A DNA stretch of 33,324 nucleotides from Candidatus Hydrogenedentota bacterium. Its GTDB lineage: Bacteria > Hydrogenedentota > Hydrogenedentia > Hydrogenedentales > SLHB01. Made by a program: the position numbers and the translations under genes. Every line of letters begins with the position of its first letter. The stretch's first letter is position 1. The DNA is taken from assembly GCA_029974275.1 (NCBI GenBank), contig JARKSN010000015.1, forward strand, positions 1-33,324. Direction: 5' to 3'. The notes under the pieces were generated by a model. The model saw only the letters and a program-made list of their open reading frames with translations, was not told where the DNA came from and made no database searches. Shown here one piece after another: positions 22,125 to 33,324 of this stretch.

Positions 22125-24800
22125 TTACGGATCGAAACGCACTTCATCGATGGCTACGTCGATGCCCGCTGTTTCACACGGATCGAGTCGCAATGCGGTG
22201 ACGGTTCCGCGCCAGAGCGTCTTTTTCGACAAGTCTATGGTATAGCTGTGCGATTGACCGTCGTGTTCGAGAAAAAAACGGGCGCTGGTCGTTTCGGAAG
22301 GCGCCGCGCCATCTGTGCCCCAATACAACTGTCCCGAGGCGTGCGGGGGCAGCGTGCCGGTGAAACGCATCGTGATGGTGCATTGCGTCGCCTCGTTTGC
22401 CGGAAACGACACCGACGAAATCGTGAGGGCCGGGTCGGAAGAGATCGTGCGGAAGCGGAGAGCGCCATTCTCGTTGCGCATGTCCACGACGTTCATATGA
22501 GCGCTCCAACCCTCAAGGCCGCTGTCGAAAGTCCACCTTGGCGGTCCGGTCTGCGTGGGGAAATCGTAGGGCCCAAGACCCACGTCCGCCGGCGCAATGT
22601 TTGCCGGCCACAATGCCGGATCGCCCGTGCCGAAGACTTCGCGAATGCGATCGTACATCGCGAATCCGAATTCGGTGCATGGTTCGATGTAGCTGCCTTC
22701 GCCCCATTCGTTCAATGGACCGATCACGACCATTGGCGCATGCTCGGCGGCGCAAAACTCCTTTGCCTGTTGCAGCAATTGTTTGAACAATGCCGGGGTG
22801 CGCCCGGTGATGCGATACGCACGGCTGCCTTCCCACGGACGATTGTCCCAGCCGGTGTCGACGGTCGGGTAATACGTCAATCCACCGCGCGCCGCATTCT
22901 GTCTGGCCCATGCCGCCGTCGCCGATTGCACGACGGTGTCGTAGGAGAGCGGACTCAGGCTTCGGGCTTCCGCTTCGTCTCGGACGCTGCCCCACTCGTG
23001 GTAACGCGTGTAAGCGGAATAGCCTTCCCTGGCAAGGGTCGCGGCGATATCCGTCGATATTTCGTTCCCGATCGCGACATAGAGGATGCCCGGAAATCCT
23101 TTTGCCTGCGCGGCCTTTTGCGATTCCTCGAACACGGCGCGCACGGCGTTCGAACCGCCCAGATCGGAACGCACGTGCGCTGTGTCCCAGATAAACACGG
23201 CAGGTTTGCCGTCAATGCGGTAATATCCCGGCAGGGTGAAATAGTGTTCGAGCCAATGCTGTGTGACCTTGCGCCAATCCTCGGGCGAATGCTGCCCTGC
23301 GGGCCAGTGATTGGCCCACATGATCGCCACCTTGAGTTGGTCGCGATAGCGTGCGTTGCGGTAGGCGCCAAACCAATGCTCAAGCATTCGGTCGCCCTTG
23401 TTCCAGTACCAATCCACCAGAAAACCCGTGATGCCGTGCTCGACAGCCCACTTGATCTGCCAATCCACGACTTCCGCCTTGCCTTCGTCGTAATAGCCCA
23501 ACAAAGGACGCCGGATCGGCGCGACGTGGCGGATGGGGTCCCACTTCTCCGGCGTGTCCCAGCCGGGGAAGTAATACGCCATTACATCGAGAATTGGTCT
23601 GACCGGTTGCGGCGCCGGCACGTAGTCGGCTTTCGGAAGACCCAGTGCGGGCGTGATGGAGATCGTGGCCGTTTGCGCGGGCGGCGCATGGTGGCCGGCG
23701 ATTGCGGCCGTGATCGGGTGATCGCCCGGCGATGACGGAAACACTGTCCACGCGAGTGTTGTGCGTTCGCCGCCGGCCAGCGCCGACAGCGTTTGCACGG
23801 CGCCGGAACCCTCTGCGTATTTCCAGCCTTCCGGCAGTTGCAGCGCTGCAGAAAGCGCGTCCACGGTCGAGCCGCCGCGGTTCATCAACTGCAGCAGCAC
23901 GCGGCACATCGCGCCCGCACGGTTTAGGCCGCTTTCCGCGCCGAAGTATTCGACCGCGCATTCAGCGGGACCGCCGGGAACGTTGGCCAACGCGAGAGAC
24001 TCGATTGTGGCGCCCTCGGGCAGGCGAACGCCAACGACAGCCAACGTTCCTTTCCATTCGGGATGGGCGCCCGTCTCGATATTGTAGTAATGAGAGAGGC
24101 CGTCGCCGCGCAGCGAAAAATCCTCGTGCACCGTCCCGCGTGACTCATGCATGCCCCAGAAAATGCTCGCCGCGCCCTCGCGATCCGACTTGATGCGCGC
24201 GACGACCCAGCTTTTTCCCGCCGCGGGCAGTGATATGGGAATCGCTCGCGTTGTTGATTCCGGCACGATGCGCCACGCGGCGTCGCTGTCGAAGGTCCAC
24301 TCCGACGCCGCGCCATTGATCTTGCCGACATCGCCCCACGGCACGACGCGCAGCGAGTCGATGGCGAAATGCGCGTTGCCGTAGAGGTCCAACCGCAGCT
24401 TGCGGACAACGCCCTCCTGCTGCCAGAACGGAAAGATGACAATGTTCTCCCATTGTCCTGCGCCCTGGACCGAAAACCGCGTCGCTTTTCTCCAATCGAA
24501 ACCGCCGGACGGCCCGCTGTCGAGATCCGTCCAAAAGAGTTCGCCCACCCCCGGCTTGTCCGCGCGCAACCGCACGACGACGCATTGCCGCGCCGTCGCG
24601 TCAATCGATAGCCCCGCACATGTGAAGAACGGATCGCTCGCTATCGTATCGCATGCCAATGCCCCATGCTCCACCCGCACATTCACGATCTGCGCGTTCG
24701 GCGTCCAGGCATGCCGCGCCTCGTCCGATGCAAACGACCACGACGGCAATTCGGCATTGGCTTGCGCCAAGATCATGGCGATACACCCGAATAGATTCAT
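22125..24800 (-). CDS. Multidomain GH99-like/WbsX-family glycoside hydrolase with CBM-like modules
   Basis: AYYFPGW, PLLGYYDE, WQIKWAVEHGI.GF..DWYW, YYRIDGKP, GWDNRPW, NEWGEGSYIEP; repeated beta-sandwich modules on both sides. Confidence 0.8.
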   Translation of the reverse strand: MNLFGCIAMILAQANAELPSWSFASDEARHAWTPNAQIVNVRVEHGALACDTIASDPFFTCAGLSIDATARQCVVVRLRADKPGVGELFWTDLDSGPSGGFDWRKATRFSVQGAGQWENIVIFPFWQQEGVVRKLRLDLYGNAHFAIDSLRVVPWGDVGKINGAASEWTFDSDAAWRIVPESTTRAIPISLPAAGKSWVVARIKSDREGAASIFWGMHESRGTVHEDFSLRGDGLSHYYNIETGAHPEWKGTLAVVGVRLPEGATIESLALANVPGGPAECAVEYFGAESGLNRAGAMCRVLLQLMNRGGSTVDALSAALQLPEGWKYAEGSGAVQTLSALAGGERTTLAWTVFPSSPGDHPITAAIAGHHAPPAQTATISITPALGLPKADYVPAPQPVRPILDVMAYYFPGWDTPEKWDPIRHVAPIRRPLLGYYDEGKAEVVDWQIKWAVEHGITGFLVDWYWNKGDRMLEHWFGAYRNARYRDQLKVAIMWANHWPAGQHSPEDWRKVTQHWLEHYFTLPGYYRIDGKPAVFIWDTAHVRSDLGGSNAVRAVFEESQKAAQAKGFPGILYVAIGNEISTDIAATLAREGYSAYTRYHEWGSVRDEAEARSLSPLSYDTVVQSATAAWARQNAARGGLTYYPTVDTGWDNRPWEGSRAYRITGRTPALFKQLLQQAKEFCAAEHAPMVVIGPLNEWGEGSYIEPCTEFGFAMYDRIREVFGTGDPALWPANIAPADVGLGPYDFPTQTGPPRWTFDSGLEGWSAHMNVVDMRNENGALRFRTISSDPALTISSVSFPANEATQCTITMRFTGTLPPHASGQLYWGTDGAAPSETTSARFFLEHDGQSHSYTIDLSKKTLWRGTVTALRLDPCETAGIDVAIDEVRFDP

Positions 24801-24816: not shown

Positions 24817-27417
24817 TCAGCGGCCTAACTTGAAACCCGCCAGTTTTAGCCCTTCAAACCATAGGATGCTGGCAACGCCCGCGCCCAATGCAATGGCCAG
24901 GTCGAGTGGATGCACCGTCCCGAACCGGAACAGATCGCGCAAGAACGGCAAGTACAGCGCCAGCCCGAGGAATATCGACGCCCCCCCAAGGACCCACCAG
25001 AGCGCCGCGTTGTGTTTTCGCATCGTCTTCAGAATCGTGTCCGACCAGGATCGATTTGTCAGGATCAGGCACAGGTTGGCGATGATGAGCGTTGCATAGG
25101 TCACCGCGCGCGTGTCGCCTTCACTGAGTCCGCGTGCGCGCGCCGTCAGGACCAGCGCCACCATGATCGCCAGCACCATCATGCCTTGCGCCAGACTGAT
25201 GCCGATCATGCGCGCGTGAAACAAGGGTTCGCTGGCCTTGCGCGGCGGGCGATGCATGACGTTCGACTCCTCGCCCTCGGCTTCGAACACCACCGAACAC
25301 GCGGGGTCGATGATGAGTTCGAGGAACACGATGTGCAAGGGCAGCAGCATCAACGGCCACTCGAACAATACGGGCAACAGCGACATGCCCGCGATGGGCA
25401 CGTGGACGGCGAAAATATACGCCATCGCCTTGGTCAGGTTGTCGAAAATGCGGCGCCCCAGACGTATCGCGCTGACTATGGACAAGAAGTCGTCGTCCAG
25501 CAACACGAGGTCGGAGGATTCGCGGGCCACGTCCGTCCCGCGTCCGCCCATGGCGATGCCGATATGGGCGGACTTCAGCGCGGGCGCGTCGTTCACCCCA
25601 TCCCCGGTCATCGCGACGATCTCGCCGTTGGCCTTGAATGCGTCGACGAGGCGCAGCTTCTGCTCCGGCACGACGCGTGCAAAGATGTTGACGCTCTCGA
25701 TGCGCTCCTGGAGCGTCGCGTCGCTCATCGCGTCCAGTTCGGCCCCGGTGATGACCTCCTCCGCGTCCTTCAACCCGATTTGGCGCGCAATGTTACGAGC
25801 CGTTTCGGCGTAATCGCCCGTGATCATCGCCACGCGTATGCCCGCGGCGTAGCACTCCTGAATGGCCTGCGGCACGGCGGGCCGCACCGGATCGGCCAGC
25901 CCGATCAAGCCGAGGAACTCAAAGTCGAAATCATGCTGCCCCACCGGCATTGGCGTCACGTCCGATCCGGTCGCACCTCCGGCTGGAGCCGCGGAGTTCG
26001 TCAGGTTCGCTTTGGCCATGGCCAGCACGCGCAGGCCATCCTTGGCCATTTCGGCCACTTGGATTTCCATCTCTGCGATAGCGGAGGCATCCAAGTGGCA
26101 CAAATCGGCGACGGCCTCCGGCGCGCCTTTCGCGGCGATTACGTAATCCGTGCGTTCGGGCGTCGACCACACCAACGACATCGCCAGCAACTCCCGCGAC
26201 AAGGGATATTCGCGCACCAGCTTCCAGTTTGTATGGAGGTGTTCCGTGTTCGCCAGGAAGTGATCGCCCAAAGTCCGGAAGGCCTTTTCCATGGGGTCAA
26301 AAGGGTCCACCTGACTCGCCAGGATGCTAAACTCGAGAACCTCGTGATACGTCTCGGGGAAAGGTCTCTTCGCGTTGAGATCGACGATAAAGGTTTTCCC
26401 CTTGGCATGAATGCGCTCGACGCTCATGCGGTTCTGCGTGAGCGTTCCGGTCTTGTCGACGCACAGCAGCGTGGCCGAACCCAGTGTTTCGAGGGCCGGC
26501 ACGCGGCGCGTCAGCACCTGTTTCTGGGCGATGCGCCAGGCGCCAAGCGCCAAAAATACAGTCAACACAACGGGGAATTCTTCCGGCAAGATCGCCATCG
26601 CCATCGTGAGGCCGGCCAGCAGGCCGTTTTTCCAGGCATGCAACGTGCCGCCATGCGTGATGCCGTACGCCGCCACCACGACGACAAACAATCCGAGTCC
26701 CACCGTCGCCAATATGCGCACGAGGCGTCGTGTTTCCTTATGCAGGCGCGTTTCCTCTTGTTGCACCGTCTGCAGGGCCTTGCCGATTCGCCCCAGGGCC
26801 GTTTGCCCGCCAATGGAATGGACCCGTGCAATGCCTTTGCCCTGCACCACGAGCGTGCCCGAATACAGGGCGTCGGGGCCATCGGCGGCGGAGGGAAGTT
26901 GCGCGTCCGCATCGTCGTGCGGCAGTTTATGCACCGCGACGGACTCGCCCGTCAACAACGATTCATCAACGGACAAGTAGTTGCTCGACAGCAACACCGC
27001 ATCGGCAGGCACGCGGTCGCCTTCGGTGAGGATCAGCATGTCGCCGACGACCACTTCGCGTCCCGCGATGCGACGCTCGAGGCCATCGCGAATGACCAAC
27101 GCTCGCGGACTCGATAAATCGCGCAAGGCTTCGAGAGCGCGCTCGGTCTTGCGTTCCTGATAGAACGTGATGCCGATGATCACGAGCACGAAGCCGAGGA
27201 GCATGATGGCTTCCTGCGCGTCGCCCATCGAGAAATAGACCGCGCCGCACGCCACCAACAGCAAGAACATTGGCTCGCGCACGACCTCGATCGCAATCGC
27301 GAAGGCGCTGCGCGGTTTCGCCGACGCGAGTTCGTTGAACCCGTCGCGTTTCAGGCGCGCCTCAACCTCGATTTGCGACAAACCAGTCAGTTTGCCAACA
27401 TCGATTTCTGTTGCCAT
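24817..27417 (-). CDS. Cation-translocating P-type ATPase (type II-like), TM4 motif PEEFP
   Basis: TGES, DKTGT phosphorylation site, KGAPE, MITGD, GDGVNDAPAL; start ATG 27417 after GGAG. Confidence 0.93.
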   Translation of the reverse strand: MATEIDVGKLTGLSQIEVEARLKRDGFNELASAKPRSAFAIAIEVVREPMFLLLVACGAVYFSMGDAQEAIMLLGFVLVIIGITFYQERKTERALEALRDLSSPRALVIRDGLERRIAGREVVVGDMLILTEGDRVPADAVLLSSNYLSVDESLLTGESVAVHKLPHDDADAQLPSAADGPDALYSGTLVVQGKGIARVHSIGGQTALGRIGKALQTVQQEETRLHKETRRLVRILATVGLGLFVVVVAAYGITHGGTLHAWKNGLLAGLTMAMAILPEEFPVVLTVFLALGAWRIAQKQVLTRRVPALETLGSATLLCVDKTGTLTQNRMSVERIHAKGKTFIVDLNAKRPFPETYHEVLEFSILASQVDPFDPMEKAFRTLGDHFLANTEHLHTNWKLVREYPLSRELLAMSLVWSTPERTDYVIAAKGAPEAVADLCHLDASAIAEMEIQVAEMAKDGLRVLAMAKANLTNSAAPAGGATGSDVTPMPVGQHDFDFEFLGLIGLADPVRPAVPQAIQECYAAGIRVAMITGDYAETARNIARQIGLKDAEEVITGAELDAMSDATLQERIESVNIFARVVPEQKLRLVDAFKANGEIVAMTGDGVNDAPALKSAHIGIAMGGRGTDVARESSDLVLLDDDFLSIVSAIRLGRRIFDNLTKAMAYIFAVHVPIAGMSLLPVLFEWPLMLLPLHIVFLELIIDPACSVVFEAEGEESNVMHRPPRKASEPLFHARMIGISLAQGMMVLAIMVALVLTARARGLSEGDTRAVTYATLIIANLCLILTNRSWSDTILKTMRKHNAALWWVLGGASIFLGLALYLPFLRDLFRFGTVHPLDLAIALGAGVASILWFEGLKLAGFKLGR

Positions 27418-27494
27418 GTGCGTGCGTCTCCAAGTGCCGCAGTTTGCGCATGCGCTGCGACGCGGGACAGTCCCTGCCACTGGGAAAGCCCCTT

Positions 27495-27534
27495 AAATCA
27501 AAAGACCTGTGGGACGAGCAGTCCCACAGGTCTT
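27495..27534 (-). terminator. Riboswitch expression-platform terminator
   Basis: Perfect 14-bp stem AAGACCTGTGGGAC/GTCCCACAGGTCTT (27502-27515/27521-27534) with UUUUGAUUU tail on the minus strand; overlaps the aptamer 3' end. Confidence 0.85.
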
Positions 27535-27598
27535 CGAATCCTGCTGGTTGATGGTAGCAACCCCGGCTGCGCCACCCGTAGGGGCCGCCTGTTCCAGC
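27517..27598 (-). ncRNA. NiCo (czcD) transition-metal riboswitch aptamer
   Basis: Minus strand GCUGGAACAGGC-[P2 with cUACGg loop]-GCCGGG-[P3 GGUUG/CAACC]-AGCAGG-[P4]-CCUGUGGGAC follows the NiCo pattern (GAGCAGGC..GCCGGG..CAACAG..CUGUGGGAC); lies upstream of a cation transporter. Confidence 0.8.
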
Positions 27599-27601
27599 GA
27601 C

Positions 27602-27630
27602 ACTCTACCTTGCCATTGCTTGGCTGTCAA
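27602..27630 (-). promoter_or_regulatory. Sigma70 promoter driving the riboswitch-ATPase transcript
   Basis: TTGACA (27630-27625), 17-nt spacer, TAGAGT (27607-27602), directly before the aptamer. Confidence 0.8.
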
Positions 27631-27682
27631 GGGATCCGTGCCGTGTTTTTCCTGGCGCCATCGAGCGGCGCCCACCCCCCCC

Positions 27683-27714
27683 AAAAAAAGCCGCCCATAG
27701 GAATATGGGCGGCT
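27683..27714 (-). terminator. Intrinsic terminator of giant protein B
   Basis: AGCCGCCCATA/TATGGGCGGCT 11-bp stem with U-run on the minus strand. Confidence 0.85.
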
Positions 27715-27735: not shown

Positions 27736-30700
27736 TTATGCAGCGCGACGGCGTCGCACGGCGATCACGCCTGCAAGCAGCAGAATCGTTGCGAGCAGCG
27801 CCAACGCGGCAGGCGTCGCCATGGGAACGCCGAGCTGTCCCGCCCCATGTGGGGGATCGTCGGGATCGAGCGGGTTGGTTCCGAGCGCGACTTCGATGCC
27901 GTCGGAGATGTTGTCGCCATCGGTGTCCCAGTTCAGCCAATCGGTCTCATTCCCCGGGAACGGCCACCGCATGGGAAAAGCTGCGTCAACATGGCTCCAT
28001 ACGCCATCTCCATTCTCGTCCTCGACCAGATCGGGGATTCCATCGCCGTCGGCGTCTTCGGTGGGCAATGGGGCGTTTTCGGGGATGCCCGCCAGGAAGA
28101 ACACGCCCCACACGTCCGTGTTGGCGACGAGGGAGGTCTCCCCGCTCTTTTGCAAGGAGGCATTCAGCCACTGGAACTGCTGGGTGCGCCCGTCGATGCG
28201 GCCCATGCGTAACGTCGCCACCGGCACGCGCGTGCCATCGACGTATCCGTCGCTGTTGTCGTCCTTGAACCATATTTGAACAGGGCCGATGGAATTGCCG
28301 GTCACGAAGGTGGTTTCGGGCTTGACGCGATAGCAGGAGCCGTCGAGAATCTGGGCGTCTCCGGAAAGCTCGAAGCGCGGCTCGCGGTCCAACCCAATCG
28401 TCAAATTCGGCGTGCCTGTGATGCGACCGCCGATCACGGTGACTCGGATAAAATCACGGTATGCCGACGAGGTCGTATTGGTTGGGACGGTGAGGCTCGT
28501 CGGATTTTGGGTGATGTTCACCGTGCGCGTGATCGGGGCAGCGGCATTGCCGGCCGCATCCGTCACGGCGTATTCCACCAGATACGTGCCCGGCGTGTTC
28601 ACGTCGACCGGATTGGACGTTTCGATGCGCGATGTGATGACGCTGGTCGAATCCACATTGTCGGAAGCCGTGGCTCCAGCGTCGACGTAGGCGAGCGTCC
28701 ATTCCTGGGACACCGACGCAGGACCCCGGAGCGAGAGCGTCGGGGCAGTATTGTCGGCCGTCAATGCTACGGGGCTGGCGGCTGTTCCGGACACGTTCCC
28801 GACGTTGTCCTGGGCGGTGCCGGGAAGCACGGTGAGTTGGATCGTTCCATTTCCCGAAATGCTGGTCAGTGAAACGGTGCGCTGTGTGGCGCCTGTGCCC
28901 GACACCATCGCGGTGGCCATGGCATTGCCCGTAGCCACAAGCCCGATGCGCGACGCGTCGAGCGTCACCGTGTCTGCGCCATCGTAGGTGATGGTGTACG
29001 TCACGATGCCGTCCTCGTTCGCGATTGGAGGCTCCGGCGCCGACACGGTGATTGCCGGCGGCGTATTGTCCACCGTGAACGCCTCGCTGGGGCCAGCGGC
29101 AGGCGTCGGATTTCCTGCGCTGTCAAGGCCGCTCCCCACTGGAAGCGATATGCTCAACGCGCCATCCCCGGTGATGTTGGAGAGCGTCACCGTGCGGGTG
29201 GTGACGCCCGTTCCGCTGCCCGTGACCGCCACCGCCGCGTCGGCCGTTCCCGTCCGGTTCAGGATCACGTTGGCGGGGCTGAGGAGGACCGTCTCGACGC
29301 CGCCATACGAAACCACGTAGGAAACTGAGCCCTGCCGCGTCTTCATGACGGAAGGCGGCCCAATGCTCACGCTGGGCGGCGTATTGTCCACCAGCAACGG
29401 GGCGCTGGGCTCCGAGGGAGGCGCCGGAACGTCGAAGTAGTCAATTCCCATGCCTGACGGCAGTTGAATCCACAACATGCCCTCGCCGCTGATATTTGAG
29501 AGAGTGGCCGTGCGGAAGGAGTTCCCTGAACCCGACAGCGCCAGCGTGCCGGTTGCGGTTCCAGAGCGCCCGAGCACGACGTTGGATGTCGTCAAGGTAA
29601 GCGTCTTCATGCCGCTATAGTGGATGTCGTAGGTGACCGGGCCTGTGCTCGCAACGGAAGGCGACGGCGCGCCGATGTTCACGCCGGGCACCGAATTCAT
29701 CACTTGAAACGCGGCGGAAGGCGCGGGCGCGGGCGCAGCATGTCCAACCGCGTCGTGCGCCGTCGCGGCCAGGATATCGATGCTCAACGATCCGTCTCCC
29801 GTGATGTTTTCAACGGTGACGGTGCGCGTGGATGTCCCTGTTCCGCTGACGCTGACGACGCCGTCGGCGGTGCCCGTTCGTTCCAGCGTGATGTCGGAGG
29901 CGACAAGAGAAACGGTGTCTGCGCCCGTGTAGGTCACGGTGTATGTGACCGGTCCGATGCCTGTCTTGTCGACCGAGGGGGCGCTGATCGCGACGCCCGG
30001 AGGTGTGTTGTCGACGATGACCGTCGCACCTGTGGCCCCTTCAGCCGGCGCCGGATTGTCAAAAGGATCGCGTCCGGTCTCAGGCGGCGCCGAGATGAAG
30101 ACCGTCCCGTCGCCGGTTATGGAGGAAAGCGTGACCGTGAAGGAGCTCCCACTGCCGCTGAAGCCAAACGTTCCGGTGGCGGTTCCCGTCCAAGAAACCG
30201 TAACATCGCTGGCCGCGAGGGCGTCAGGCGTTCCCATGTTGGAATAGACGATCTCGTACGTCACGGGGCCTATCGATGTGGCCAGCGCGGACGGATCGTC
30301 GATGCTCACGCTCGGTTCTTGACTGCGCACGTTGAAGGAGGCGCTGGAACCTCCATTGGCGAGGTTGCCGGCGTTATCGCGCGCCGTGTCGGCGGCGATG
30401 GAGATGCTGAGCGATCCATCGCCGGTGATGCTGCTCACGGTGACGTTCCGGCTGGAACTTCCCGTTCCCGAGACGCTCACGACGCCGTCCACGCTTGCCG
30501 TTCCCAGGGGCGTCTTGATGAGGGTGATGTCTGTTGCGGCGAGCGTGACCACGTCGGCGCCGGCGTAGGTTACCGTATAGGTCACCGGCCCCGAAGCCGT
30601 GAGCGCGGTCGAGGGGGCGCTGATGGTCATGACGGGATTCGTGTTGTCGACGGTGAATGCCGTCACGGCGGACGCGGGAACTGCAGGCGCGGGAACGTCC

Positions 30701-33228
30701 CAATAGTCCGTCGCTGTTCCGGAAGGAAGCGAGACTTTCAGCGTGCCGTCCCCCGTCAAACTGGTTAGGCTGATGGTGCGGGTCGTGTTGCCCGATCCGG
30801 AGACGCTCACGGCAGCGCTCGCAGAGCCCGTTCGAGTCAATATTACGTCGGACGCCTGCAACCCTACGCTCGCCATGCCCGCATAAGAAACGGTATAGGT
30901 CACGGTTTGGCCCGATTTGGCGTAGCTGCTGGAAGGTTGCGAGATGCTCGTGCTGGGCGCGTTGTGTTGGACGTTGAATACGGCGCTGGGACCTGCGCCA
31001 TTGGCCAGGTTGCCGGCGGCGTCGACGGCGGTATTGGCCGCCAACGAAATGCCCAAACGGCCATCTCCCGTGATGCTGGAGAGCGTCACCGTGCGGGTTT
31101 GGCTGCCGGACCCGCTCACCGACACGGTCGCGCTGGCCGTAGCGGTTCGATTGAGGGAAACCTGAGCCGCTCCAAGCGTCACGGAGTCGGCGCCCGTGTA
31201 GGTGATGGTGTAGGTCACCGGTCCGTCCGACGTGCTGCCCGTGGAAGGCGCGCTGATGCTCACGACCGGCTTGGTGTTATCCACCGTGAACGTGGCGCTG
31301 GGACCTGCGGCCGGAGCCAGATTGCCGCCGCTGTCCGAAGCCGTTCCCGCGGCAATCGAGATGCCCAGCGCGCCGTCGCCGGTGAGACTCGACAACGTCA
31401 CGGTTCGCTCCGTTGTGCCCGATCCGCTGACAGAAATGGATCCGCTGGCCGTTCCTGTTCGGTTCAGGGTGATGTGGCTGGCGGCCAGCGTGATGGTGTT
31501 TACGTTGCCGTAGGTGACGGTATAGGAGATGGGCCCCGTGTTCGTGATGGAGGCGGAAGGACTGCCAATAGAGGCTGTCGCAAGGGCGGGAGCGGGAATC
31601 TTGCCCGACACACGGCCCATCCAGTACAGCGTGTACATGTCAAAACCCGGGAAACCGCGGCAGATATAATCCATTTCCCCGTTCGTCGCGAGCGCGGCGG
31701 ATCGCTGCCAGTTCCAATCGTTCATGGTGGTTTGGTGCGGCAGAACGGCATAGGTCGTGTATTGCGCGTTATAGTAATATGGGGCGAATCGCGGGTCTGC
31801 ATGCAAGTTGATGGGACGTCCCCATTTGACGGGGTCGGGCATGCACAACAAACCGCCAAGCAGTGTCGCATACGCGTCGATGGGGACCGATCCGTTATCA
31901 AACATGCAGGTGGCGGCCGCCAGGAAACCGTTCATGTCGAACCGCCGCGCCTCGTAGCGGCTTCTCCACGTGTTGTTAAACGAGACGAGCTTGCTAGGAT
32001 TGGTTTCCAGCAGCGTGATGCCGAGCCCACGCATCCAGTCTAAGTTGTTGATCCAGTAATCCCCGTTGCTCTCGTATAGGTTGTTGTTCGTCGACAAGGA
32101 CAGGTTGTAGGATGAGATCGTGCTCGCGAAGCTCGAATATTTCGTCGGGTTGGCCTTGTAGCCCACCCGCCGCTGCAATTGCTGCAGTTGGGTGTTGTTC
32201 GCAGTCGTGTGGCCCTTGCCGTCGAGGATATTCCAGCTGTCCGCGATGAGACGATCGATGATGATCTCGACAATGGCCTTGCAGTTCGCCAAGATGGTCG
32301 GATCCTGACAATACTGCAAGCAGGCCGCCAGACCGGTAAACAAACCGGTTTGCGTGTCGCGCGAAGGATAGCCCAGCCACGTATAATCCGTCCACGGAGC
32401 GGCGCCCGTGTAATGGCCGTTGCTGTAGCCGTTATAGTACCAATAATAGCCGGCATTATTGGTTGGACCCGAGAAACGCGCCGTGCGTCCGGCGGTGCCC
32501 GTGATCATGATGTTGCGGTAGATGCCGTCCAATACGCGATTCAGGTCGTCCTTCGTTTGTTGATCGTTGGGCATACAGGCATTTTTCATGGACAGCGCCA
32601 TCAAATGCATTCCCGTGAAACACATCGAATCGCCGATGAGATCCAGGGCGTCCAACGCGCCGGTTCGATTGAAATTGTTCCACCAACCCACGCCTTCCTG
32701 TCCCCAAAACTCGTTGTGATCGCGGTAATCGGTCAAATGGTTTTCCGCCTTCACGTACATCTGATTGATTTGGTCTTGCGTCAGGCCGTCCCAGCCGATC
32801 CAGGAACCGCGCAGGAACGACGTAAGCTGGTTCTCCTGGGTGGCGTTGGGGTGACATGTGCTGCCGAGCGGCAGAAAGGTCGCGTAGATCGTCGTGTCGG
32901 CGTTCAGGGTCAACTGCGTCGGGTTCTGCAAGGACGGCGTAAACTGCGGTGAGCTTGGTGAATACGACCAGTGACTGAAGACCCATCCGGCATCGGGGTC
33001 GCCCGGCATTGCCGGAGCGACGTCGGGCTTGCTCGTGAACTGCTGTCCATTCGAGGGACTGAACGAGATCGTCACCACCGTGCCAGCCGCATAGGGGGGC
33101 GACGGCGAAACCGAGTACCGGCCCTGACCGATAAGGTTGACGGTGAGTTGCACGTCTGCATAGGCGAGACCCAAAAACAGGCACCCGCAGAATGCCACTA
33201 CCAGTGCGCAAAAAAGCCTCTGATTCAT
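27736..33228 (-). CDS. Giant cell-surface protein B (~1830 aa): signal peptide, InlB-B-like repeat, ~420-aa uncharacterised enzyme-like domain, 9 Ig-like repeats, DUF5011-like Ig, Ca-binding DxDGDG motifs, C-terminal TM anchor/sorting signal
   Basis: GGGAGGTG RBS before ATG 33228; signal ending AYA; ~105-aa repeats with GPVTYTVTY..TGDG..D.AGN; DADGDGIPD and DTDGDNISDGIE; C-terminus VPMATPAALALLATILLLAGVIAVRRRRAA. Confidence 0.88.
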   Translation of the reverse strand: MNQRLFCALVVAFCGCLFLGLAYADVQLTVNLIGQGRYSVSPSPPYAAGTVVTISFSPSNGQQFTSKPDVAPAMPGDPDAGWVFSHWSYSPSSPQFTPSLQNPTQLTLNADTTIYATFLPLGSTCHPNATQENQLTSFLRGSWIGWDGLTQDQINQMYVKAENHLTDYRDHNEFWGQEGVGWWNNFNRTGALDALDLIGDSMCFTGMHLMALSMKNACMPNDQQTKDDLNRVLDGIYRNIMITGTAGRTARFSGPTNNAGYYWYYNGYSNGHYTGAAPWTDYTWLGYPSRDTQTGLFTGLAACLQYCQDPTILANCKAIVEIIIDRLIADSWNILDGKGHTTANNTQLQQLQRRVGYKANPTKYSSFASTISSYNLSLSTNNNLYESNGDYWINNLDWMRGLGITLLETNPSKLVSFNNTWRSRYEARRFDMNGFLAAATCMFDNGSVPIDAYATLLGGLLCMPDPVKWGRPINLHADPRFAPYYYNAQYTTYAVLPHQTTMNDWNWQRSAALATNGEMDYICRGFPGFDMYTLYWMGRVSGKIPAPALATASIGSPSASITNTGPISYTVTYGNVNTITLAASHITLNRTGTASGSISVSGSGTTERTVTLSSLTGDGALGISIAAGTASDSGGNLAPAAGPSATFTVDNTKPVVSISAPSTGSTSDGPVTYTITYTGADSVTLGAAQVSLNRTATASATVSVSGSGSQTRTVTLSSITGDGRLGISLAANTAVDAAGNLANGAGPSAVFNVQHNAPSTSISQPSSSYAKSGQTVTYTVSYAGMASVGLQASDVILTRTGSASAAVSVSGSGNTTRTISLTSLTGDGTLKVSLPSGTATDYWDVPAPAVPASAVTAFTVDNTNPVMTISAPSTALTASGPVTYTVTYAGADVVTLAATDITLIKTPLGTASVDGVVSVSGTGSSSRNVTVSSITGDGSLSISIAADTARDNAGNLANGGSSASFNVRSQEPSVSIDDPSALATSIGPVTYEIVYSNMGTPDALAASDVTVSWTGTATGTFGFSGSGSSFTVTLSSITGDGTVFISAPPETGRDPFDNPAPAEGATGATVIVDNTPPGVAISAPSVDKTGIGPVTYTVTYTGADTVSLVASDITLERTGTADGVVSVSGTGTSTRTVTVENITGDGSLSIDILAATAHDAVGHAAPAPAPSAAFQVMNSVPGVNIGAPSPSVASTGPVTYDIHYSGMKTLTLTTSNVVLGRSGTATGTLALSGSGNSFRTATLSNISGEGMLWIQLPSGMGIDYFDVPAPPSEPSAPLLVDNTPPSVSIGPPSVMKTRQGSVSYVVSYGGVETVLLSPANVILNRTGTADAAVAVTGSGTGVTTRTVTLSNITGDGALSISLPVGSGLDSAGNPTPAAGPSEAFTVDNTPPAITVSAPEPPIANEDGIVTYTITYDGADTVTLDASRIGLVATGNAMATAMVSGTGATQRTVSLTSISGNGTIQLTVLPGTAQDNVGNVSGTAASPVALTADNTAPTLSLRGPASVSQEWTLAYVDAGATASDNVDSTSVITSRIETSNPVDVNTPGTYLVEYAVTDAAGNAAAPITRTVNITQNPTSLTVPTNTTSSAYRDFIRVTVIGGRITGTPNLTIGLDREPRFELSGDAQILDGSCYRVKPETTFVTGNSIGPVQIWFKDDNSDGYVDGTRVPVATLRMGRIDGRTQQFQWLNASLQKSGETSLVANTDVWGVFFLAGIPENAPLPTEDADGDGIPDLVEDENGDGVWSHVDAAFPMRWPFPGNETDWLNWDTDGDNISDGIEVALGTNPLDPDDPPHGAGQLGVPMATPAALALLATILLLAGVIAVRRRRAA
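28745..31580 (-). repeat. Nine tandem ~105-aa Ig-like repeats within protein B
   Basis: Manual alignment of the translation; unit P.VSISAPS...GPVTY..Y.G...TL....TGTA...VSGSG..RTVTLS.ITGDG.L.I....TA.D..GN....F.V. Confidence 0.85.
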
Positions 33229-33324
33229 GAGACACCTCCCTACCATAGAGGCAGTCGGTTCGACAAAATGGCGATCCGAATGCATGTTCCTGTTCCCGTC
33301 CTGTCACGAAGGACGCGTGGCCTG

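Follow-up and report, generated by a model that had tools for sequence, protein, structure and literature searches.

A NiCo (czcD)-class metal riboswitch, predicted to act as a transcriptional ON switch, before a calcium-pump-like P-type ATPase of a Hydrogenedentota bacterium

Layout of the locus

The window, i.e. the whole 33,324-nt stretch of Candidatus Hydrogenedentota DNA that was analysed, carries a promoter-like site, an aptamer of the NiCo (czcD) class and a terminator on its minus strand, 77 nt upstream of a gene encoding a P-type ATPase (Table 1). The promoter-like site agrees with the consensus at 10 of 12 positions, and one such site was found where 0.1 would be expected from shuffled sequences, which bears out the consensus promoter of the original prediction. 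Judging by its spacing, transcription would start near G27595, at the 5′ edge of helix P1 of the aptamer. The aptamer precedes the ATG of the ATPase gene by 99 nt and is on the same strand, i.e. in the 5′ leader as is typical of NiCo riboswitches. The ATG itself, at 27417, follows a GGAG (27431-27428) at 10 nt and is backed by homologues that align from residue 1. The gene for an 891-aa protein starts 16 nt past the ATPase stop, behind an AAGGA; this spacing suggests that it is probably the second gene of the ATPase transcript, in which case it would be under the control of the riboswitch too. No such gene was found next to the ATPase orthologues at 29 loci of the phylum. On the upstream side, a terminator-like hairpin sets the gene of a large surface protein apart from the riboswitch unit, and a run of G's (27689-27670) follows this hairpin. 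A 2334-nt contig of a related strain (DNA run X4) shows 21 differences from the window over 26400-27642 and stops matching at 27642, 12 nt upstream of the -35 box, where it continues into unrelated sequence; in that strain, what lies upstream of the promoter-riboswitch-ATPase unit is thus different.

Table 1. Features of the locus in window coordinates, from upstream to downstream in the direction of transcription.
Feature	Position	Strand	Description and basis
Surface protein, 1849 aa, with Ig-like domain and TSP3 repeat	27736-33285	-	ORF and Pfam; stop at 27736
Terminator-like hairpin of the upstream gene	27689-27714	-	stem of 11 pairs with 7 G-C, 4-nt loop, followed by TTTTTTT; terminator scan
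Sigma-70-type promoter-like site	27602-27630	-	TTGACA 27630-27625, 17-nt spacer, TAGAGT 27607-27602
NiCo (czcD) aptamer	27517-27606	-	Rfam RF02683 and our covariance model R1
Expression platform	27494-27534	-	14-bp terminator stem, loop UGCUC, tail UUGAUUUA; folding and pair listing
Leader between terminator and start codon	27418-27493	-	Sequence and fold; no clear function in the fold
P2-like P-type ATPase of the 'PEEFP' clade, 866 aa	24817-27417	-	Pfam, NCBIfam, structure match and homologues
Protein of 891 aa with WbsX/GH99-like and NPCBM_assoc domains	22125-24800	-	ORF and Pfam

The aptamer and its terminator

The covariance-model search that the original prediction had proposed as a check was positive. 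The Rfam NiCo model (RF02683) aligns over its full length (positions 1-96 of 96) and scores 37.5 bits against a gathering score of 37, i.e. it clears the cut-off by the narrow margin of 0.5 bit. The E value is 4.2e-5 for the window against 4227 families, 4.6e-7 for a 361-nt region and 1.3e-6 in the 4.38-Mb host genome, where this is the sole match; the 14 control genomes gave no match to the model. In the search of the 361-nt region one weaker match to a NiCo clan mate was left out, and the yybP-ykoY family was absent among the overlapping Rfam matches with E up to 10. Our own covariance model (R1), which was built from five sequences of the phylum, scores the window aptamer at 73.6 bits. The window agrees at all 28 columns that are conserved to at least 90%, 23 of which are fixed by the search pattern; the five pattern-free columns are the C, A, C, A and G of CA-CAG, and the window matches these as well.

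The helices P2, P3 and P4 are present as first described, all of the pairs listed for them being standard. P2 is a GGC/GCC stem closing GCC-CC[UACG]GG-U-GGC, P3 pairs GGUUG with CAACC (27562-27558 with 27550-27546) and P4 pairs GCAGG with CCUGU (27544-27540 with 27530-27526). Together with P1 they form a four-way junction in which 22 of 22 hand-listed pairs are standard, three of them G.U; of the 23 model pairs, 19 are standard in the alignment fitted to the model, two are non-standard and two fall on gaps, owing to a different register in P2 and P3. The junction strands, i.e. GAACAGGC, GCCGGG, CAGCAG and GUGGGAC, contain all of the junction sequences of the class (GA-CAGGC, GCCGGG, CA-CAG and GGGAC). 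According to the accessible part of 10.1101/2025.08.02.668262, the metal-binding guanines of the solved NiCo aptamer lie in the P2/P3 (J23) and P4/P1 (J14) junction strands, with terminal G.A pairs, and the P4 3′/J14 strand is the switching (anti-terminator) strand. The equivalents of the metal site, as far as that account describes it, are kept in the window as GGG 27564-27562, GGG 27525-27523 and the A's of CAGGC and CAGCAG.

Helix P1 is weak. It consists of U27596-G27519, G27595-U27520 and G27594-C27521 plus the isolated C27591-G27523, and costs +4.6 kcal/mol in the nearest-neighbour model; a start at G27595 would place U27596 outside the RNA, so that two P1 pairs plus C27591-G27523 would be left. 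P1 and the interior of P2 also deviate from the Rfam consensus ('v' marks in the alignment). The original prediction had considered a short, weak P1 close to the start site to be unusual; the shortness is real, but it is not unusual, as the -10 box abuts P1 in the four relatives described below too. The A in GAACAGGC, which had likewise been called unusual, proves to be widespread, since at least 118 metagenome stretches match a pattern that requires it; it is present in four of four relatives within the phylum, and the g of the Rfam consensus at this position is in lower case.

Downstream, AAGACCUGUGGGAC (27534-27521) pairs perfectly with GUCCCACAGGUCUU (27515-27502) over 14 bp around the loop UGCUC, and this hairpin alone reaches -27.7 kcal/mol. 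Its 5′ arm shares bases with the loop and the 3′ strand of P4, with the GGGA and with the first P1 3′ base, so that the terminator competes with the aptamer for the P4 3′/J14/P1 3′ strand; both pairing and fold thus agree with the 14-bp terminator that had been predicted to take up the P4 3′ strand and GGGAC. The U tract of the terminator is interrupted (UUUUGAUUU), and a simple consensus terminator scan did not list the hairpin at 27534-27502 but only that at 27714-27689. The minimum free energy of the whole leader is -57.0 kcal/mol (z -4.71), and none of 200 shuffled sequences folds as well. In the nearest-neighbour model, the aptamer fold reaches -17.0 kcal/mol, compared to -43.4 kcal/mol for P2 and P3 together with the terminator. 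As the terminator fold is far more stable than the aptamer fold, the default state would be termination (OFF), and only a metal-locked junction formed during transcription could prevent it, i.e. the leader would act as an ON switch. The ON-switch reading of the original prediction is supported in that it follows from this anatomy.

In the related strain, G27532>U occurs together with C27504>A, and a G-C pair of the terminator is thereby replaced by U-A, a compensatory change; 27532 is a P4-loop base, and the rest of the aptamer is unchanged. The retention of the aptamer along with a compensatory change in the terminator points to selection on the switch. Two RNA runs each gave a contig within the ATPase gene (X12, 263 nt on 26877-27138; X20, 151 nt on 27031-27181), which is not proof of transcription, and neither run gave a contig on the leader.

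The NiCo (czcD) structure 4RUM comes from an Erysipelotrichaceae bacterium (Furukawa et al. 2015, as cited in the accessible parts of PMC9389577, PMC11672702 and 10.1101/2025.08.02.668262). The riboswitch of the window resembles the 4RUM type in its four-way junction, junction sequences and G-rich metal site, in a switching strand that lies within the terminator, in its location in the 5′ leader of a cation transporter gene and, by prediction, in its ON logic. It differs in its host, which belongs to the Hydrogenedentes and not to the Firmicutes, in a shorter P1 that abuts the promoter, in a P2 with a UACG loop and a U bulge, in a score just over the cut-off and in the regulation of a P2-like ATPase.

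Occurrence in relatives and metagenomes

NiCo matches over the cut-off were found in only 5 of 135 genomes of the Hydrogenedentes phylum, i.e. in the host genome and in four genomes from a single genus of its order (loci L096-L099 of G043-G046; 38.7-47.2 bits), and the earlier remark that the host is an unusual one for this class therefore stands. The units of the four relatives share the compact arrangement of the window, with a TTGACA and a -10 box abutting P1, the GAACAGGC variant of the aptamer and a terminator with the 5′ arm CCUGUGGGAC. Their P1, P2 interior and P3 differ from the window by paired changes, the P3 and the P2 interior being of entirely different sequence. Unlike the window, all four have a CDF exporter of 321-357 aa (Cation_efflux and ZT_dimer domains) after the aptamer. 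The Rfam match, the overlap with the terminator and this homologous design in relatives together bear out the proposal of a complete NiCo/czcD-type riboswitch. Among 41 genomes, i.e. the host and 40 relatives, the host alone passes the cut-off. Eleven of the 40 relatives gave a total of 14 sub-threshold matches of 17.2-28.1 bits; we take these as noise, since they fall for the most part on long ORFs and in no case next to an ATPase homologue.

A pattern scan of metagenomes with GAACAGGC...GCCGGG...CTGTGGGAC gave at least 118 stretches, and 80 loci were retrieved. R1 confirms 55 of these at E <= 0.001; the other 25 are likely to be chance matches, as they are mostly G+C-rich and have unrelated neighbours. 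Among the matches listed, the ORF downstream of the 55 confirmed loci encodes a CDF protein in 44 cases, a P-type ATPase without Cation_ATPase_N in four, a P-type ATPase with Cation_ATPase_N in two (L145 and L169) and a VIT1 protein in one, its type being not determined in the remaining four. In the alignment of these 55 distinct sequences, which was fitted to the model and so favours the structure, 95.7% of cells are paired compared to 80.9% in shuffles, and the covariation score is 0.325 compared to 0.118 when shuffled (reached by 0 of 500 shuffles) and to at most 0.067 when the partners are slid. At one metagenome locus (L125:735-1715), NiCo matches of 34.7 bits (735-824) and 29.3 bits (1626-1715) flank a VIT1-family (iron-transporter family) ORF, and there is a weak third match at 863-942.

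The window aptamer is approximately 51-56% identical to those of the same-order relatives and 55% identical to a low-GC metagenome example (L171). The identity to relatives is thus no higher than that to low-GC metagenome examples. A class-level search by way of the genome of locus L021, which is probably no typical Clostridium, found NiCo in none of 151 genomes and therefore says little about the Clostridia.

The regulated ATPase and the proposed mechanism

The riboswitch is of a known class, and its partner is not one of the customary heavy-metal exporters but an uncharacterised ATPase that resembles calcium pumps. The original prediction of a P-type ATPase as the regulated gene holds as regards the P-type, but not for the heavy-metal P1B type, since the pump is P2-like with Cation_ATPase_N and Cation_ATPase_C domains. 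Membership of the P1B heavy-metal ATPases, an eight-helix type that lacks Cation_ATPase_N and Cation_ATPase_C and includes P1B4 pumps such as PfeT/FrvA, was rejected on account of these domains, of a TIGR01525 score of 234 bits against a cut-off of 346, and of the M4 motif LPEEFP, which is not of the (C/S/A)PC type described for P1B pumps in the available part of PMC3573892. The P2A Ca(II)-ATPases of PMR1/SERCA/LMCA1 type were also considered; the ATPase lies below every NCBIfam equivalog cut-off, and its best score, to the PMR1-type Ca-ATPase model TIGR01522, is 468.6 bits against a cut-off of 798.3. The CtpE family (family 23 of the uncharacterised P-type ATPases) is set apart by its TM4 motif, given as VPEGL in the text seen of PMC5615198, where the window has LPEEFP. 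We found no paper on the PEEFP clade, and a search on the uncharacterised P-type ATPase families (FUPA) led only to CtpE.

The window pump carries the motifs LPEEFPVV in M4, AVHVPIAG in M5 and FLELIIDPACS in M6. Proteins with the signature of the clade, i.e. M4 LPEEFPVV, M5 H-x-PIAG and M6 ELIIDP(A/T)CS, occur in many bacterial and some archaeal phyla and are usually annotated as calcium or generic cation pumps. P2A Ca(II)-ATPases have a PEGL-type M4 and Asn/Asp ion ligands in M5 and M6. The closest solved structure is the Listeria Ca-ATPase LMCA1 (6zhf, E 5.5e-123, residues 11-860; also 6zhg and 6zhh), with which the window pump shares the order of domains. Unlike LMCA1, which has IPEAL, GNLG and NLVND, the pump has LPEEF, VHVP and ELIIDPAC at the aligned places. 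At these M4, M5 and M6 positions, which we take to be ion-ligand positions, the pump carries His, Glu, Asp and Cys compared to the Asn/Asn/Asp of LMCA1, and a transition metal therefore fits better than Ca(II). In a set of 81 sequences, i.e. the window and 80 homologue loci of many phyla at 50-66% identity, H672 is conserved in 80, E280 in 79, C707 in 77, D704 in 73, E279 in 67 (N in 10) and E700 in 66 (H in 10). The NiCo-linked ATPases of L145 and L169 are 38% and 41% identical to that of the window, respectively, and share the M4 motif AMA-x-PEEFPV with it. H672, E700, D704 and C707 of the window pump recur, at 42-45% identity, in the full-length L169 protein and in five proteins of its Clostridia-rich family. 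The presence of the PEEFP clade behind NiCo on two unrelated metagenome contigs hints at transition-metal export by the clade.

Twenty-one further genomes of the phylum encode an orthologue of the ATPase (57-67% identity). A strict pattern search of the 500 nt upstream of 80 named homologue loci gave no match, and a scan of 40 of these 80 loci at the Rfam gathering level gave only two tRNAs. When R1 was run on 24 sources (the window locus, 18 orthologue loci of the phylum and five named loci), it found the window locus only, along with four weak matches (12-20 bits), which fall within genes or on the wrong side of them. As the riboswitch is absent from the 18 orthologue loci of the phylum and from the 40 scanned homologue loci of other phyla, its pairing with the pump is a single occurrence within this orthologue group, and it appears to have been joined here to a pump that is elsewhere regulated otherwise. 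In the four relatives that carry the CDF-type unit, the window ATPase is matched only by paralogues of 32-40% identity. The host genome (marker-gene completeness 100%, contamination 3.58%) has neither a CDF gene (no match to PF01545, which was found in 14 of 14 control genomes) nor VIT1, and the PEEFP pump stands where the relatives have a riboswitch-controlled CDF. The host also encodes two P1B ATPases over the TIGR01525 cut-off (C99:7987-9657 and C112:13953-15707), neither with a NiCo match, and the window pump is therefore not its sole candidate metal exporter.

The neighbours of the ATPase homologues were surveyed through 23 adjacent same-strand ORFs chosen from 140 flanking ORFs. Three of the 23 are metal-transport genes, i.e. 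a second P-type ATPase (L016:2814-5174), a CDF (L017:2790-4043) and a VIT1 (L029:1645-2343), a number that is suggestive only; four are MarR regulators, and the remainder are unrelated. At the Bacteroidales loci L057, L060, L061 and L094, a MarR gene of 137-146 aa immediately precedes the PEEFP-type ATPase gene in the same orientation, which suggests protein-based control of the pump there.

Similar pairings are known. The accessible part of PMC9389577 mentions a NiCo-regulated gene of C. cellulolyticum, Ccel_1038, whose annotation is that of an 'MgtA-like' ATPase outside P1B, so a non-P1B partner of NiCo is, to that extent, already in print; the window, in a different phylum, likewise has NiCo before a P-type ATPase outside the P1B heavy-metal type. 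The yybP-ykoY Mn(II) riboswitch activates the P2-type Mn/Ca ATPase MgtA of Streptococcus (Martin et al. 2019, through the parts available of PMC9389577 and PMC11672702). This is again a metal-sensing four-way-junction riboswitch that turns on a P2-type ATPase, although the RNA family differs.

Riboswitches of the NiCo class are characterised by cooperative binding of Ni(II), Co(II) or Fe(II) and by read-through that depends on the metal. We propose, with a probability of about 0.85, that a NiCo (czcD)-class metal riboswitch acts as a transcriptional ON switch before the P2-like ATPase gene. Transcription would begin a few nucleotides ahead of P1. At low levels of free Fe(II), Co(II) or Ni(II), CCUGUGGGAC would pair with the downstream GUCCCACAGG to form the 14-bp hairpin followed by U's, and the transcript would end before the ATPase gene. 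When metal is high, ions at the junction guanines would lock the four-way junction, and the switching strand would be held by P4, by the short P1 and by the GGGAC strand of the junction, such that no terminator could form. The polymerase would then read into the PEEFP ATPase gene and probably also into the 891-aa gene behind it. By analogy with the relatives, the pump would most likely export the sensed metal, in the role of the CDF behind the same riboswitch.

The fold could instead be tuned to another divalent ion, e.g. Mn(II), Zn(II) or Ca(II), to match the P2-like pump. Listeria LMCA1 and the SPCA/SERCA pumps are the closest to the window pump, whose nearest relatives of solved structure transport Ca(II) and Mn(II); some NiCo constructs respond weakly to Mn(II) and Zn(II) in the available text of PMC9389577, and the deviations of P1 and the P2 interior from the Rfam consensus would suit such a retuning. 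However, the intact set of 28 conserved columns (23 of them forced by the pattern), the presence of the same aptamer type before CDF, P1B-like and VIT1 genes elsewhere, and ion-site residues that differ from the Asn/Asn/Asp of LMCA1 and suit a transition metal better than Ca(II) make a different ligand improbable. A shade less probable again is that the aptamer is a decaying relic, with the leader serving as a constitutive attenuator or the gene being driven from elsewhere. Decay could explain why the terminator state is approximately 26 kcal/mol more stable than the aptamer fold, why P1 has three weak pairs (fewer if transcription starts at 27595) and why the Rfam score is marginal; moreover, orthologous ATPases work without a riboswitch. 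It does not sit well with the conserved junction bases, all of which are intact, nor with the functional-looking units of the relatives, in which P1 is equally short and abuts the promoter. In the X4 strain the aptamer is unchanged but for one P4-loop base and the terminator is kept by a compensatory change, and the two RNA-library contigs on the ATPase coding region weigh slightly in the same direction.

We give very little credence to a chance resemblance in G+C-rich DNA, of the kind seen in the related genomes, where 14 sub-threshold matches of 17-28 bits mostly overlap long ORFs. The match in the window has an E of 1.3e-6 for the genome and no counterpart in the 14 control genomes, it is intergenic and on the right strand, after a promoter-like site, overlapped by a terminator and before a cation pump, and four relatives have homologous units. 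Thus, the NiCo-class ON switch is the reading that we retain.

A wider proposal, that the PEEFP P2-like ATPases constitute a hitherto overlooked class of exporters of Fe(II), Co(II) or Ni(II), to which NiCo was recruited at least three separate times (in this genome and at L145 and L169), is put forward tentatively, as we consider the odds to be somewhat against it. The riboswitch is routine and detectable with Rfam, and the locus therefore adds a host phylum and a gene partner, not a new mechanism. An Fe(II)/Co(II)/Ni(II)-sensing riboswitch would nevertheless provide a functional label for a widespread orphan clade of P2-like ATPases, and the pairing bears on the debate on whether NiCo riboswitches are truly iron sensors of anaerobes. 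A text search of the accessible papers found none that joins 'Hydrogenedent' and 'riboswitch'. The sequencing runs that contained at least half of the sampled words, from four studies and with X4 as the one aligned to the window, come from anaerobic digesters, wastewater and activated sludge.
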